Below, piece by piece: positions 6,640 to 46,013 of a stretch of 56,885 bases of DNA. Source of the stretch: Candidatus Parcubacteria bacterium. Lineage in GTDB: Bacteria > Patescibacteriota > Minisyncoccia > Phycocordibacterales > PALSA-1337. Location: assembly GCA_041158765.1 (NCBI GenBank), contig JBEBAU010000021.1, forward strand, positions 1 to 56,885, given 5' to 3'. A model generated the notes under the pieces. That model was not told the origin of the DNA. It saw nothing but the letters and a program-made list of their open reading frames with translations, and ran no database searches. The translations under genes and the position numbers were made by a program. The stretch's first letter is position 1. The number at the start of each line of letters is the position of its first letter.

Positions 6640-7452
6640 ATGCCGATTTCATTTTCCCCAATACAAAATCACATCTTGACGCAGCTCAAAAACGCCAAAT
6701 CGCTTCGCTATAGTGAAATGAAGCCTAAGGCCATTCCTAATGATCTATTCAATTATCACCTGCAGTTTCTAGTGAAAAAGGGTTTTGTTGAAAAAACTGG
6801 CGGAAAAACTGTCGAAAAAGCTGCCAAAGCTGCAAAAACTGCTGGAAGTGGTGCATATTGTTTGTCTGAGGTTGGTGTTCGACACGTCGCTGATGCATAT
6901 CCGCTCAACAAAGAAGAAGAAAAGAATGCGAGCCTTTTCAAAATAAATGTCATAACGATTGTCTCAAGAGTTGTGCAAGATCCAGCGAGTCCGCGATCAA
7001 AAAGCAGAAAAGGTTCAAAAAAGATTCAAATCTTGAATCAAATTCGTGGCGTACATCCTTCATATGGCAAAATCGGCGTTCCAGGTGGCGTTGTTCGCAA
7101 AGGCGAGCCAGTTCTCGCTGCTGCCACTCGCAAGCTCGAGGAAGAGACGGGGCTCGTTGCTGACTTTAATTTGCTCGGTTTCGAACGAAGAATGATGTAT
7201 GTGCAACATGAGCTTTTTTCAGATGTGCTTTTTCCAATTGCTTATTCAGATCAAACGCGCGGTGAATTATTGGCCGAAACAAAATTTGGCAAAAATATGT
7301 GGGTTGATATTGATCAGGCGATACAGCATGAATCAGCGGAATTCGATTCGCTCGTGAAGATTCGCGACGTTTTACTTTCAATAAAAAAGGGTAAGGATGC
7401 TATCAAAAAATTGCCATTCTTCTACGAAGAAAAGGTGCAAAGTGACGTGTAG
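6640..7452 (+). CDS. Nudix hydrolase with N-terminal winged-helix domain
   Basis: Nudix box GGVVRKGEPVLAAATRKLEEETGL. N-terminal wHTH-like segment ILTQLKNAKSLRYSEMK...LFNYHLQFLVKKGFVEK. Confidence 0.8.
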   Translation: MPISFSPIQNHILTQLKNAKSLRYSEMKPKAIPNDLFNYHLQFLVKKGFVEKTGGKTVEKAAKAAKTAGSGAYCLSEVGVRHVADAYPLNKEEEKNASLFKINVITIVSRVVQDPASPRSKSRKGSKKIQILNQIRGVHPSYGKIGVPGGVVRKGEPVLAAATRKLEEETGLVADFNLLGFERRMMYVQHELFSDVLFPIAYSDQTRGELLAETKFGKNMWVDIDQAIQHESAEFDSLVKIRDVLLSIKKGKDAIKKLPFFYEEKVQSDV

Positions 7453-9029: not shown

Positions 9030-10142
9030 ATGAACAAACATACAACTGTTGCCATTAATGGCTTCGGCCGAATCGGTCGCGCTTTTTTGAAAGTATCATT
9101 AGCAAATTCCGCTCTCAATGTTGTTGCCGTGAATGATCTCGGTGATATCAAGGATATGGCGTACTTGTTGAAATACGATACTGCATATGGTGTGAGCACG
9201 TTTGATGTGCAAGTGAAGCAGCCAACTTCGGGCGCCGCTGGTTCTGTTGTGTGGCCATCTCTAGTGATCAGTGGGTATGTATTTGATACACAGGGTGAAA
9301 AGGTTGCGGTGAATAAAGAGGTGATATTTGTGAGTGAAAAAGATCCGACGAAGTTGCCATGGAAATCTCTCAATGTTGATGTGGTTGTTGAATCTACCGG
9401 ACTTTTCACATCAAGTGAAAAAGCAATGGCGCATATTACTGCTGGTGCTAAGCGTGTTGTTGTTTCAGCTCCAATCAAGGATGAGCCGACTTCAACCGTG
9501 AAGGGTGCGACCTTGCTCATGGGAATGGACGAAGCAGCTGTGGTTGCAGGTTTCAAATCTTGTCCTATTTCATCTAATGCTTCTTGTACGACCAATGCTG
9601 GCAGTCCGCTTCTCGCAATTCTCGATGAAGCCATTGGAGTTGAAAAGGCCGTACTTAATACAGTGCATGGATACACTGCGAGCCAAGGTATTGTTGATGG
9701 CCCAAATAAGAAGGACTTCCGTGAAGGTCGAGCCGCTGCGCAGAATATCGTGCCATCTTCAACTGGTGCTGCAATTGCAGTGACCAAGGTTCTCAAGGGC
9801 CTCTCGGGACTTTTTGATGGAATATCTATTCGTGTGCCAGTTGTTGCGGGTTCGATTGTGGACATTACGTTCATCTCGAAGCGTGGCACTACTGCAGAAG
9901 AAGTGAATATTATTTTGAAACGCGCCGCCGCTCTCCCTCGTTGGAAGGGTATTTTCACTGTGACCGAAGAGCCACTCGTCTCTCACGATATCGTCGGTAA
10001 CCCTCACGCCTCAATCGCTGATCTCGCCATGACACGCGTCGTCGGCGGCAATCTCGTCAAAGTTCTTGGGTGGTATGATAATGAAATGGGGTATACGCAT
10101 ACGTTGGTGAGGCATGTAATCGAGGCGGGGAAACTAATATAA
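9030..10142 (+). CDS. gap: glyceraldehyde-3-phosphate dehydrogenase, type I
   Basis: INGFGRIGR Rossmann motif, catalytic SNASCTTN, and C-terminal WYDNEMGY. Confidence 0.95.
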   Translation: MNKHTTVAINGFGRIGRAFLKVSLANSALNVVAVNDLGDIKDMAYLLKYDTAYGVSTFDVQVKQPTSGAAGSVVWPSLVISGYVFDTQGEKVAVNKEVIFVSEKDPTKLPWKSLNVDVVVESTGLFTSSEKAMAHITAGAKRVVVSAPIKDEPTSTVKGATLLMGMDEAAVVAGFKSCPISSNASCTTNAGSPLLAILDEAIGVEKAVLNTVHGYTASQGIVDGPNKKDFREGRAAAQNIVPSSTGAAIAVTKVLKGLSGLFDGISIRVPVVAGSIVDITFISKRGTTAEEVNIILKRAAALPRWKGIFTVTEEPLVSHDIVGNPHASIADLAMTRVVGGNLVKVLGWYDNEMGYTHTLVRHVIEAGKLI

Positions 10143-10144
10143 TT

Positions 10145-10339
10145 ATGAAAAAAATTATTGTAGGCTTTGTAGTAATAATAGTGCTGCTGATAATATCAAG
10201 TTATATTGAAAGTTCTTACTGCCACAGTCTCAACAGATTGAATACTGTACCTCCATACGAATACAATAATTCAGTATTTTGTATGGCGAATTCATACCCC
10301 GCATTGATAGGATTATTGATTTATGGTTTGGTACGATAA
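10145..10339 (+). CDS. hypothetical small membrane protein (64 aa)
   Basis: AT-rich ORF starting 2 nt after the gap stop. N-terminal TM helix. Its 3' end runs out of frame into the duplicated gap fragment. Confidence 0.35.
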   Translation: MKKIIVGFVVIIVLLIISSYIESSYCHSLNRLNTVPPYEYNNSVFCMANSYPALIGLLIYGLVR

Positions 10340-10400
10340 TGAAGTAAGTTATATACGTGCTTTGGTGAGGCGTGTGATCGAGGCGGGAAAGTTGGTGTAA
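10329..10400 (+). pseudogene. displaced duplicate of the gap 3' end (WYDNEVSYIRALVRRVIEAGKLV*)
   Basis: 24 codons including the stop align codon-for-codon with gap 10071-10142 (WYDNEMGYTHTLVRHVIEAGKLI*). By hand count, 55/72 nt and 16/23 aa are identical. Confidence 0.8.
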
Positions 10401-10422
10401 CTATTATCATTAATAAAATATT

Positions 10423-10605
10423 ATGTGGAGAAAATTAACTAGTGTACAAAAGATCATTCTAAGCATAGCAGTTGTTTTCTTGTTTATTGGAGCATTGGCT
10501 GACTATATTACATTTATTCCAAAGCTCACATCAATTTTTTTGGCAGCAATTGGTTCAATTGCAATGTTTAGTTTTTGGGTCAATACAAAGGATACAAAAA
10601 AGTAA
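10423..10605 (+). CDS. hypothetical small membrane protein (60 aa, 2 TM)
   Basis: AT-rich ORF between the gap 3' duplicate and a possible third relic. Two hydrophobic helices. Confidence 0.35.
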   Translation: MWRKLTSVQKIILSIAVVFLFIGALADYITFIPKLTSIFLAAIGSIAMFSFWVNTKDTKK

Positions 10606-10624
10606 GCAGTAGGCTGTCACGGTG

Positions 10625-10657
10625 TGGCAATATGACGGGGTATACACAGAGCGTTAG
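10625..10657 (+). pseudogene. possible third, degenerate relic of the gap 3' end (WQYDGVYTER*)
   Basis: tggcaatatgacggggtatacacagagcgttag shares TGG, TATGA, the exact 9-mer GGGGTATAC and CGTT with gap 10071-10110, with indels. It is immediately followed by a strong terminator. Confidence 0.3.
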
Positions 10658-10670
10658 GCTTCAAAAAGAA

Positions 10671-10698
10671 AACGGCATCCTAGATGGGTGCCGTTTTT
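10671..10698 (+). terminator. intrinsic terminator
   Basis: AACGGCATCC-N4-GGGTGCCGTT followed by a T-run. Confidence 0.75.
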
Positions 10699-10737
10699 CA
10701 TTAGCGGTTTTAATTTACACATCATAATTTCGCATCA

Positions 10738-10766
10738 TTGACTTTTAAGCAAAACATTGGTATAAA
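10738..10766 (+). promoter_or_regulatory. sigma70-type promoter (TTGACT-17-TATAAA with TGg extension)
   Basis: TTGACT 10738-10743, a 17-nt spacer, then TATAAA 10761-10766. Gives a leader of about 80 nt with AAGGAG 7 nt before ATG 10851. Confidence 0.55.
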
Positions 10767-10850
10767 GTTCATAAATAGGCCTTTGTCAATTTTCAATTAA
10801 CAAAGGAGAACTTAGTCTCGGAAAACAAACAAAACTGAAGGAGAAAATAC

Positions 10851-11036
10851 ATGAAAATTGTATCTGCTGTTAAGCGGGCATGTAAGAGCCTGTGGCATAA
10901 TTTGCCCATGCTCACCATCGGTGGTGTAGCTGGTTGCGTGGTTGGCATCGCGATTGGCATGGTGATTGCTTACCACACCATTACCCATGAGGGTGTGATG
11001 GAGATCCTTGCCAAAATGTGGAGCGAATCGTTATGA
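10851..11036 (+). CDS. hypothetical small membrane protein (61 aa)
   Basis: Strong SD AAGGAG (10838-10843). One TM helix (LPMLTIGGVAGCVVGIAIGMVIAY). ATGA overlap with the next gene. Confidence 0.55.
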   Translation: MKIVSAVKRACKSLWHNLPMLTIGGVAGCVVGIAIGMVIAYHTITHEGVMEILAKMWSESL

Positions 11037-11782
11037 AAATGATTCTTACATTGGTCACTTCACTCGCTCTATTCCTCACTCCGTTCATTCAGGTCAAAGC
11101 GAGTGATATTCAAGTCAGTCAGACTGAAGAAAACACACAGCCTAAGCCAAACCTTCTTGCAGAATGCGGGTTGGCGGCTGTGGTCATCATTGTTGGCGGC
11201 ATTGTGATTATCAAAATGGTCCGTTTGTGTCAAAAGGTTCTTCCTCCGACACCTCCGCCGTCAACAAATAACGTTGCTTCGGTGACGATGAAGGCTAGTA
11301 ACGCCGAGAGTCTGCCTGAAACGGATATGTATGCCGCTCTGATCATTCTCGGGCGGGACAATTCATTTGGTGGCTCCGGTGTTTCTGGCACAATGGAAAT
11401 TCCATACACTACCGGCGTTTCAAACACTCCAGCTACGCTTGGTCAACCAAAATGGAATAACCCCTCAACAATGGTTTCGCAAGGATTGTTTGCGAGCCAG
11501 TTGGCTGAATATGGTCTAGGTTTCAGTCAAACGAGAACGAGCTATAGCTCAAACGCTATTCCTGTCACGGCACTCGATGCTATTCAATACACAAATGGAG
11601 TTCTTGTTGTTAAGGCGGGAAGTTCATCTGTTAGAACGACAAATGTGTTCGAGCGTTCAGTTGACATGGTCAATTGGACTCCAATTCTTACCAACATTGT
11701 AGTTGGCGGATCGGTTCAGGGGACAATAACTGACTCGACCATGTCTTCGGATACCGGTTTTTACCGGATAATCAGCAGGTGA
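11033..11782 (+). CDS. hypothetical secreted/membrane protein (249 aa)
   Basis: ATG 11033 overlaps the upstream stop (ATGA), with GGAG 9 nt upstream. Signal peptide MKMILTLVTSLALFLTPFIQVKA, a TM helix, and a PPTPPPS linker. C-terminal motif ...SVDMVNWTPILTN...GFYRIISR. Confidence 0.65.
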   Translation: MKMILTLVTSLALFLTPFIQVKASDIQVSQTEENTQPKPNLLAECGLAAVVIIVGGIVIIKMVRLCQKVLPPTPPPSTNNVASVTMKASNAESLPETDMYAALIILGRDNSFGGSGVSGTMEIPYTTGVSNTPATLGQPKWNNPSTMVSQGLFASQLAEYGLGFSQTRTSYSSNAIPVTALDAIQYTNGVLVVKAGSSSVRTTNVFERSVDMVNWTPILTNIVVGGSVQGTITDSTMSSDTGFYRIISR

Positions 11783-11798
11783 CTGGTCTCAGGTTGCG

Positions 11799-11834
11799 AT
11801 AGGCATCTCATACGAGGTGTCTATTTTATTTTTT
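11799..11834 (+). terminator. intrinsic terminator
   Basis: ATAGGCATCTC-ATAC-GAGGTGTCTAT (two G-T pairs) followed by TTTATTTTTT. Confidence 0.7.
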
Positions 11835-11951
11835 ATAGAGTTTAGATAATTAGTGTGTACAAATTTATCAAATCTTTATTACTTTTTTATAGAGATTTTA
11901 TTTCAATTTTGTATGATGGTGTTGTTAGTTTACGCTTTTGAACACACCAAT

Positions 11952-12308
11952 ATGCAGAATATACACAATCACCACATATTTGTGACACACGAAGACCTTC
12001 GGAGGTTGGAGTCGCGTATTGATGAGCGGTTTTGTGAGGTTGATGATAGATTCACTGAGCTGACCGAGATAATGATGTCGAATTTCGATCGTATACAAGC
12101 TGATTCTGATAAGATGTGGGCTCAGTTTGATAAGATTGACTCTAGGTTTGAAAAGATAGACTCGAAGTTCAAACAAGTAGATTCTCAATTCGAAAAAGTA
12201 TGGAGTAAGTTCGCCGCTATGGATAAACGTTTTGATCGAATAGAGAATACACTCGACCTTATTTTGAAACATTTCTCCATTACTGCTCAAAGTGGAACTG
12301 GTGGATAA
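11952..12308 (+). CDS. hypothetical coiled-coil protein with heptad F-x-K-[IV]-D-S-x repeats
   Basis: The ORF track starts at 11853. The ATG at 11952 (MQNIHNHH...) removes an implausible hydrophobic leader. Strong heptad periodicity. Confidence 0.5.
   Translation: MQNIHNHHIFVTHEDLRRLESRIDERFCEVDDRFTELTEIMMSNFDRIQADSDKMWAQFDKIDSRFEKIDSKFKQVDSQFEKVWSKFAAMDKRFDRIENTLDLILKHFSITAQSGTGG
12126..12251 (+). repeat. six tandem 21-nt (7-codon) repeats inside the coiled-coil gene
   Basis: FDKIDSR / FEKIDSK / FKQVDSQ / FEKVWSK / FAAMDKR / FDRIENT, read directly from the sequence. Confidence 0.8.
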
Positions 12309-12332
12309 TAGAGGACAATACCTGAGCAAAAG

Positions 12333-12341
12333 TGCTATAAT
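12333..12341 (+). promoter_or_regulatory. extended -10 element (TGcTATAAT) of rpiB, leaderless spacing
   Basis: Ends 6 nt before ATG 12348. No SD. Confidence 0.5.
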
Positions 12342-12347
12342 CACCAC

Positions 12348-12806
12348 ATGAAAAAGAGCAAAATACTAATAGCGAGCGATCATGCAGGCTTTGAACTCAA
12401 AAATATCCTCGGTATATATTTGAAAGAAAAAGGTTACGATGTTGAGGATATGGGTGCAGATAAGCTTGATTCCGAGGATGATTATCCTAAGATAATGGTG
12501 CCCGTAGCTACTCGTGTTCTCGCTGATCCACAAAATGTGCGAGCAATTATATTTGGCGGCTCAGGAAACGGTGAAGCCATGGTTAGTAATCGATTTCCAG
12601 AAGTGCGTGCCGCAGTATACTATGGTGGACCTCTCGAAATCGTGAAGCTTTCACGTGAGCACAATGATGCGAACATACTTTCACTCGGTGCACGTTTCAT
12701 TGATGAGAAAATCATGAAAGAAGCTGTAGATTTGTGGCTTACGACGCCATTTTCTGGAGAAGCGCGTCATGCACGACGTAATGAGCTCATTGATTCAATT
12801 GAATAA
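12348..12806 (+). CDS. rpiB: ribose-5-phosphate isomerase B
   Basis: RpiB/LacA/LacB family pattern: IASDHAGFELK, IIFGGSGNGEAMVSNRFPEVRAA. Confidence 0.9.
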   Translation: MKKSKILIASDHAGFELKNILGIYLKEKGYDVEDMGADKLDSEDDYPKIMVPVATRVLADPQNVRAIIFGGSGNGEAMVSNRFPEVRAAVYYGGPLEIVKLSREHNDANILSLGARFIDEKIMKEAVDLWLTTPFSGEARHARRNELIDSIE

Positions 12807-45913: not shown

Positions 45914-46013
45914 GTTACTCCTATCGTATAGATGAGGTTTGTTATCTTTGGACCCAGGGTATACCCGGTGTTAATCCAGCAGTAACCTTAACCAAAGAGT
46001 TCAACAAAAGCAA

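Follow-up and report, generated by a model that had tools for sequence, protein, structure and literature searches.

Insertion into the end of a gene, with the incoming element bringing a replacement end, is a known kind of event. In E. coli, e14 and phage 21 integrate at the 3' end of icd, leaving the icdC pseudogene (PMC13626634); ICESt1 and ICESt3 integrate at the 3' end of fda, and cis-mobilizable elements (CIMEs) arise by decay and tandem accretion (PMC5704250). Islands are likewise found at the 3' ends of tRNA and tmRNA genes, among them the tycheposons of Prochlorococcus (bioRxiv 10.1101/2020.12.28.424599). Here we analyse the 3' end of gap, the gene of GAPDH, in a contig of Candidatus Parcubacteria bacterium (JBEBAU010000021.1, assembly GCA_041158765.1; the whole stretch of 56,885 nucleotides is called the window hereafter), where repeats of the gap end alternate with small open reading frames (ORFs). 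We consider it likely that these repeats are a decayed array of serial integrations and that the gap 3' end serves as the attB site of temperate phages of Paceibacteria and of related tyrosine-integrase elements. Little is known of lysogeny and gene flow in the Candidate Phyla Radiation (CPR). Counts of prophages exist for metagenome-assembled genomes (MAGs) of Patescibacteria, ~20% in one survey, and in the searchable papers we found no description of gap, or of any other site, as a prophage attachment site in these bacteria; gap as a target is new.

How does this locus compare with the described systems? As with e14 at icd, a tyrosine-integrase prophage occupies the final codons of a gene of central metabolism, brings a slightly different replacement end and leaves a displaced C-terminal fragment at its far end; the gap prophages of Paceibacteria behave in the same way. 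Co-oriented direct repeats flank the insert in the window, at nine other loci and in an intact provirus. A recombinase gene beside the att site is absent from the window and present in the related intact elements L083 and L088 (L numbers designate the loci or contigs compared, from genomes or from IMG/VR). Reconstitution of the target by an element-borne end is seen in L001, where the functional gap end to the right of the crossover core is identical in 48 of 50 nt to the arm of a phage, phage 2, in L088 and L091. By contrast, e14 has another target gene and a host of another phylum, and the window holds stacked relics with inserts apparently cut to ~260-290 bp and a single small ORF. Like ICESt1, ICESt3 and the CIMEs, the elements use the 3' end of a glycolytic gene, where decay keeps att and loses the integrase and new elements integrate alongside to give arrays; at gap, tandem prophages are directly seen. 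The active elements at gap are, however, tailed phages and not conjugative elements, and CIMEs measure kilobases whereas the units of the window measure ~0.26-0.29 kb. Tycheposons reportedly occur in streamlined genomes and consist of cargo modules split by partial copies of the target end, made by tyrosine recombinases. Here too, streamlined genomes hold cargo modules with partial copies of the target end between them, but gap is a protein-coding target and the array of the window has no recombinase. The short, co-oriented, promoterless single-ORF units, packed against a recombination site behind a fixed point of entry, also recall integron cassettes. Unlike these, the locus has no IntI, attI or Pc, its repeat is a coding gene end, and no attC-like hairpin was detected in the repeats: folded as DNA on either strand, the two copies reach -0.3 to -1.8 kcal/mol, no better than shuffled sequences.

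Extra gap ends between gap and rpiB

The gap gene of the window is 60-74% identical to its closest relatives, which are gap genes of Paceibacteria/Parcubacteria MAGs; an exact-protein look-up of the GAPDH returned no record. Its frame is intact and it keeps all invariant residues. The last 24 codons (10071-10142) are repeated at 10329-10400 in the same register, stop codon included, as a preliminary description of the locus had noticed. The aligner confirms the 16/23 identical amino acids counted there by hand and corrects the nucleotide count from 55/72 to 54/72. This second copy is significant (tblastn E=8e-5; nhmmer, searching with a profile built from 75 gap ends, E=9e-4), and its similarity to gap breaks off sharply upstream of the TGG of WYDNE. 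The two small ORFs described around it, ORF1 and ORF2, exist and are mutually unrelated.

A third, more degenerate copy had also been proposed. As an alignment it is not significant: its score of 21, compared with 14.4+/-2.4 for shuffles (maximum 28), is reached by 31 of 2272 windows along the contig, and nhmmer with the gap-end profile is silent. What stands is the exact 9-mer GGGGTATAC, found on both strands of the window only at 10088 and 10637 (0.08 expected), which includes the crossover core, itself defined independently from prophages. Because of this exact 9-mer we retain the third copy, relic 3, despite its weak alignment; it is probably a real, eroded att site. The window then has three cores, exact at 10089-10096, degenerate (5/8) at 10347-10354 and exact at 10638-10645. 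Over the whole window the 8-mer GGGTAYAC occurs seven times, where shuffles predict 0.77; att blocks account for two of these and a palindrome at 45957-45966 for two more, so that there is an excess beyond the locus as well.

Comparison with related genomes, which the preliminary description had called for, reveals both empty and occupied junctions. In ~25 relatives spread over the whole gap tree, gap and rpiB lie 0-35 nt apart with no terminator between them, and this direct adjacency is the ancestral state. Eight of the 75 Paceibacteria loci carry one to four extra copies of the gap end; further copies were found later in contigs L086 and L090, and the same architecture is present in more than ten independent assemblies. 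All copies lie between gap and rpiB on the + strand, that of gap, and all except the copy of L045 start at the TGG of WYDNE, at profile position 1-3. The left boundary of the relics is the same in all lineages (TGG of WYDNE, +0-8 nt) and coincides with the att repeat of prophages. When metagenomes were scanned for close relatives of the locus, L090 was the only contig recovered.

All 77 functional gap ends fit TGGTAYGAYAAYGARATGGGNTAY and keep WYDNEMGY. Within those 24 nt the downstream copies show one to five departures, including a change of TGG to TAG, and relic 2 has changed two residues that functional ends hold invariant. These downstream copies are relics without function. The relics of L071 and L028 abut the start of rpiB, as normal gap ends do, and one of those in L007 borders on a 100-aa gene that sits directly after gap in five other genomes. 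The distal copy retains the old downstream neighbour, so the insert lies between the functional end and the relic. Members of a minus-strand ORF family of 260-335 aa in several gap-rpiB inserts were considered as integrases and rejected, as the family reads as diaminopimelate epimerase (PF01678 in the context of L101).

Table 1. Positions of the features of the window and of the contigs compared with it.
Feature	Position	Strand	Remark
gap (GAPDH), integration target	9030-10142	+	Gp_dh_N and Gp_dh_C matches
Host-side att arm within functional gap, codons WYDNEM	10071-10088	+	77/77 functional ends fit the consensus
Crossover core GGGTATAC, functional copy	10089-10096	+	GGGTAYAC is the sole segment common to the junctions compared
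Current gap end, last 15 codons and stop	10097-10142	+	putative P' arm of most recent insert
ORF1, 64-aa small membrane protein, sole cargo of unit a	10145-10339	+	stop codon inside relic 2
Relic 2	10329-10400	+	54/72 nt identical to gap end
Relic 2, P-arm-like part, WYDNEV, putatively of the element	10329-10346	+	
Relic 2, degenerate core AGTTATAT	10347-10354	+	5/8
Relic 2, putative displaced former gap end	10355-10400	+	
ORF2, 60-aa small membrane protein, cargo of unit b	10423-10605	+	
Relic 3, probable eroded att block	10625-10657	+	exact core 10638-10645 and ~12 nt of an older gene end
Intrinsic terminator, 13-pair hairpin and U-run	10668-10698	+	-21.9 kcal/mol, z=-4.6
Three accessory ORFs (61, 254, 151 aa) between array and rpiB	10851-12308	+	absent at the ancestral gap-rpiB junction
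rpiB	12348-12806	+	LacAB_rpiB match; 2206 nt from gap
One extra gap-end copy each	L005, L011, L028, L045, L071		
Four extra gap-end copies	L007		
Relic reduced to a 17-nt stub	L003		the part overlapping ORF1
PF00589 integrases in intact elements	L083 8831-10003; L088 2465-3643		
AbiEii-type toxin pairs	L007 5900-6771 and 7674-8577; L099 3176-3736		two pairs in L007
Family-B ORFs	L007 5610-5822 and 6860-7288; L011 5030-5308; L036, L090, L097-L101		

Prophages at the gap 3' end and the crossover core

A pattern scan of IMG/VR recovered viral contigs that start or end in gap. IMGVR_UViG_3300014208_001117 holds a complete gap at 255-1292, and 38.4 kb downstream gap residues 340-370 appear again, alone. 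The two sites share a direct repeat of 59/60 nt that starts with CA followed by TGGTATGA. Beside the distal site, attR, are a tyrosine recombinase of 390 aa (PF00589, E=4e-21) and a small helix-turn-helix ORF, and phage replication genes (AAA_24, PD-(D/E)XK and an IstB-like loader) follow the proximal site. A related phage family stands directly after gap in the genomes L001 and L019 and in the IMG/VR contigs L081, L082, L084 and L091; L082 and L088 have ATPases 97% identical to that of L001, and L082 also encodes a portal protein (E=1e-63). In IMGVR_UViG_3300025323_000513 (59.9 kb), one end of which lies inside gap, a 37.4-kb prophage closing with int and a xis-like ORF is followed by a gap-end fragment and then by at least 22 kb of a second prophage, which is serial insertion caught with full-size elements. 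L088 had been considered as the attP of a free phage; the contig coordinates place it at the middle site of the tandem prophage pair. In all eight prophage proximal (attL) arms examined, an intrinsic terminator lies 25-60 nt past the supplied stop. Intact and tandem tyrosine-integrase prophages at this very site bear out the earlier suggestions of serial insertions by integrative elements that bring a replacement gap end, and of a decayed integration hotspot.

L096, the contig end of IMGVR_UViG_3300025323_000513, shows a peculiarity of its own. Its gap end, supplied by the first phage of the pair (phage 1), has no stop at the usual position, and the GAPDH extension would be ~28 residues (…AAASYLLPEEEGRQMRINAGIWTNGRDGQK); its host has WYDNEIGY in place of the otherwise invariant WYDNEMGY.

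Four junctions were compared for the position of the crossover: a host with phage 2 (L091), the same host with phage 1 (L096), the phage-1 arm with phage 2 (L088) and another host with phage 2 (L001). The host sequence on the left is identical in L091 and L096 through GGGTACAC, and the phage arms to its right differ. At the middle site, in L088, the left arm TGGTACAGCAATGAACTA is degenerate, reading WYSNEL, and is followed by GGGTACAC and the phage-2 arm. The same host is therefore seen in two occupied states with breakpoints in GGGTACAC, phage 2 alone (L091) and phage 1 with phage 2 (L096/L088). Given that GGGTAYAC (nt 19-26 of the block, codons G-Y-T) is the sole segment common to the host-phage 2, host-phage 1 and phage 1 arm-phage 2 junctions, we place strand exchange within it. 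The core ATCGAGGCGGG proposed in the preliminary description corresponds to the conserved IEAG codons, ~30 nt 3' of this position, and has to be given up. Judged from these junctions, the last ~15 GAPDH codons come from the phage, and ~18 nt at the left of each relic derive from the element and not from gap, which explains why it is in the WYDNEM codons, invariant elsewhere, that relics depart furthest from functional ends. Two relics next to ORFs of family B, a family of small membrane proteins, have their first 24 nt in common (L090 and L007-7270; TAGTATGAYAACGAACTAATGTAT), and their displaced ends differ, as a left arm brought by the element would predict. By analogy with L001, whose end matches the phage-2 arm of L088, the current gap end of the window would have been supplied by the newest insert as its P' arm.

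One integration system of Paceibacteria is defined in this way, comprising the gap 3' end, the 8-nt core GGGTAYAC, matching tyrosine integrases, and phage arms with a replacement end and a terminator. For site-specific integration in these bacteria the att/integrase pair is a candidate tool, and the signature of the relics can be used to date and count past lysogeny events in MAGs. For annotation, it should be borne in mind that the GAPDH C-terminus in these genomes may be phage-derived.

Origin of the array

How could such an array arise? In the scheme that we favour, strand exchange would take place in the GGGTAYAC that encodes G-Y-T of the invariant WYDNEMGYT, and the incoming element would supply the last ~15 codons and the stop with its P' arm, so that gap stays intact. 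The previous gap end would be displaced downstream and joined to ~18 nt of the element's P arm, the source of imperfect WYDNEM codons. Repeated insertion at the functional core would stack units, the youngest nearest gap. The first layer would be unit a (10089-10346, 258 bp core to core, with ORF1), the youngest if insertion takes place at the functional core; the second, unit b (10347-10637, 291 bp, with ORF2); and the third, an older remnant of a phage-type arm made of relic 3 and the terminator. Units a and b, each with one small ORF, flanking att-like sites and no integrase or virion genes, would descend from larger elements, and the small membrane-protein genes, read through from gap, would be all that the array keeps.

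The rightmost relic and the strong terminator behind it, which the preliminary description had rightly recognised as such, had been taken for the original gene end. To us they look like an old phage-type P' arm, because eight of eight phage-supplied ends have a terminator and the ancestral gap end, which runs directly into rpiB, has none. The array as a whole is most likely an old, immobile remnant comparable to decayed CIME-type elements, since its units have no integrase, the core of copy 2 is degenerate and the displaced end has lost invariant residues. The relics of mini-units are 20-30% diverged from the functional end, as against 59/60 identity in the repeat of the intact prophage. A comparison of decay along the relics (codons 1-8 versus 9-21) proved too biased and was not used. 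In L026, between a Fic gene and rpiB, a collapsed family-B remnant (1712-1780; MKQKRYWL, stop, ... IYGKIKNRNK) shows directly that the gap-rpiB slot decays by deletion.

Several observations weigh against the favoured scheme. Of 13 cases, 12 have a cargo ORF whose end lies -19 to +6 nt from the relic, at a place where intact phages have a non-coding P arm of 128-194 nt, xis and int, and simple random deletion does not predict so tight a fit. Neither an empty nor an alternative state of the locus was seen for the window's own species, and the order of the insertions cannot be proved. Integrase and phage genes are absent from the window: Pfam searches of 30 ORFs and an integrase hidden Markov model run against all six-frame ORFs found no recombinase in the 56.9 kb, in line with what had been said of the units at the outset. 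In IMG/VR viral contigs, ORF1 and the family-B ORFs have zero relatives.

In a rival reading, the 260-500-bp units, each a replacement gap end with one promoterless small ORF and an ~18-nt arm, would themselves be mobile miniature cassettes without an integrase, moved by phage-type integrases acting in trans at GGGTAYAC or carried along by tandem accretion. The preliminary description had raised a new kind of miniature cassette; we do not count it among the supported claims and regard it as unlikely. In its favour, besides the flush junction of cargo ORF and relic in those 12 of 13 cases, only 2-25 nt separate the supplied stop from the ORF start, and a minimal end, a family-B ORF and a relic follow one another in L090, L011 and L007. 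The relic start common to L090 and L007-7270 despite unlike displaced ends, and the ORF1-relic junction kept in the window, L086 and L003, where the displaced ends again differ, count in its favour as well. The displaced end is still a normal gap end in L007a, L071 and L090, and units a and b lack a terminator of the phage-arm type. However, we found neither a circular form nor a presence/absence polymorphism, and no two genomes were seen to share a near-identical cassette. The relic divergence given above, in all mini-units, and the degenerate core of copy 2 speak against the cassette reading, and such units leave no space for arm-type integrase sites. Family B is large and often stands without any relic after gap or between transketolase genes, and its members may be resident genes. 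Should cassettes nevertheless be at work, for which we see only a slim chance, a housekeeping gene end would act as an integron-like platform for cassette acquisition and expression in ultra-small CPR bacteria.

Replication slippage or unequal exchange could also have duplicated the gap end locally in tandem, together with a small ORF, the copies diverging later; this reading would need no mobile element and is very improbable. The relics do resemble the gap end of their own lineage, and the ORF behind the relic of L011 has a C-terminus like that of family B (GWIYVKIRGQK), which makes a duplicated pair of end and ORF conceivable there. Against this, the left boundary is the same everywhere and equals the prophage att repeat, ORF1 and ORF2 of the window are unrelated, the L007 relic at 6776 is nearest to the end type of another clade, and exactly such a structure is produced by full-size prophages. 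Least probable of all is that strain variants were collapsed into an assembly artefact, or that selection maintains a functional unit, for instance one providing alternative GAPDH C-termini; an artefact and a functional unit had both been foreseen in the preliminary description. All that speaks for them is the intact frame of copy 2 and an ATG two codons upstream (10323), but Logan contigs of two independent runs span 9743-11500 and 9743-11359 with zero differences and even depth, the architecture recurs in independent assemblies, and the relics lose residues that functional ends hold invariant, some opening with a stop codon.

Cargo of the slot and the neighbouring genes

Homologues of ORF1 are found in two other contigs (78% identity in L086, 43% in L003), and in both the junction with the relic is kept. 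ORF2 has no homologue among 5.8 billion proteins, and the small ORFs of the window have no match in PHROGs. In L086, a close relative, the order is gap end, NTP_transf_2, Fic, ORF1 homologue and relic, a larger version of unit a measuring 1.2 kb; like the L003 relic cut to 17 nt, it speaks for the decay of bigger elements. Its Fic gene (240-1219) and that of L026 (1155-1703), both located after gap, are 84% identical in amino acids and 80% in nucleotides, with homology extending from a TATAAT-like box 16 nt before the ATG to the stop. The GAPDHs of the two lineages are far more diverged, that of L026 being 62% identical to the window GAPDH and the partial one of L086 being close to it. The likeness of the Fic genes suggests that cargo is exchanged horizontally between lineages and enters the same slot.

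Genes of AbiEii-type toxins with small upstream partners recur in the arrays downstream of gap. Together with Fic and HicAB, the AbiEii pairs of L007 and L099 make a cargo typical of prophage-adjacent hotspots. Family B, with 202 database matches, comprises small membrane proteins widespread in Patescibacteria, with an N-terminal xYWLRGG and a C-terminal GWxYGKIKNRNK. It is often the first gene after gap, or stands between split transketolase genes, without any relic; an analogous duplication of the transketolase-N gene end beside family-B ORFs was sought and none was found. L097 has two tandem family-B copies followed by HicAB. The gap-rpiB junction is a hypervariable slot that gathers small membrane proteins and toxin-antitoxin or defence-type genes.

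The accessory ORFs between the array and rpiB in the window may be remains of the oldest insert, and would belong to the array on that account. The product of the last of them (11853-12308) is a 151-aa coiled-coil protein with DSxFxKxD repeats and weak matches to DUF16 and to several PHROGs of unknown function (best E=1e-9). L010 carries a homologue between gap and rpiB, and the protein may be a remnant of phage origin. Relatives transcribe rpiB together with gap. In the window, where inserts and terminators split it off, rpiB seems to have its own promoter, predicted from a strong sigma-70-like site directly upstream (12312-12341; AGGACA, 18 nt, TG-TATAAT; 10/12 matches). Scans of the window for tRNAs and Rfam families returned nothing. 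A 174-bp Logan contig from run X3, which belongs to a different study, is identical to 10662-10835 of the window, that is, to the terminator and the intergenic region behind it; its flanking genes were not recovered, and it probably stems from the same organism, at ~3x depth.

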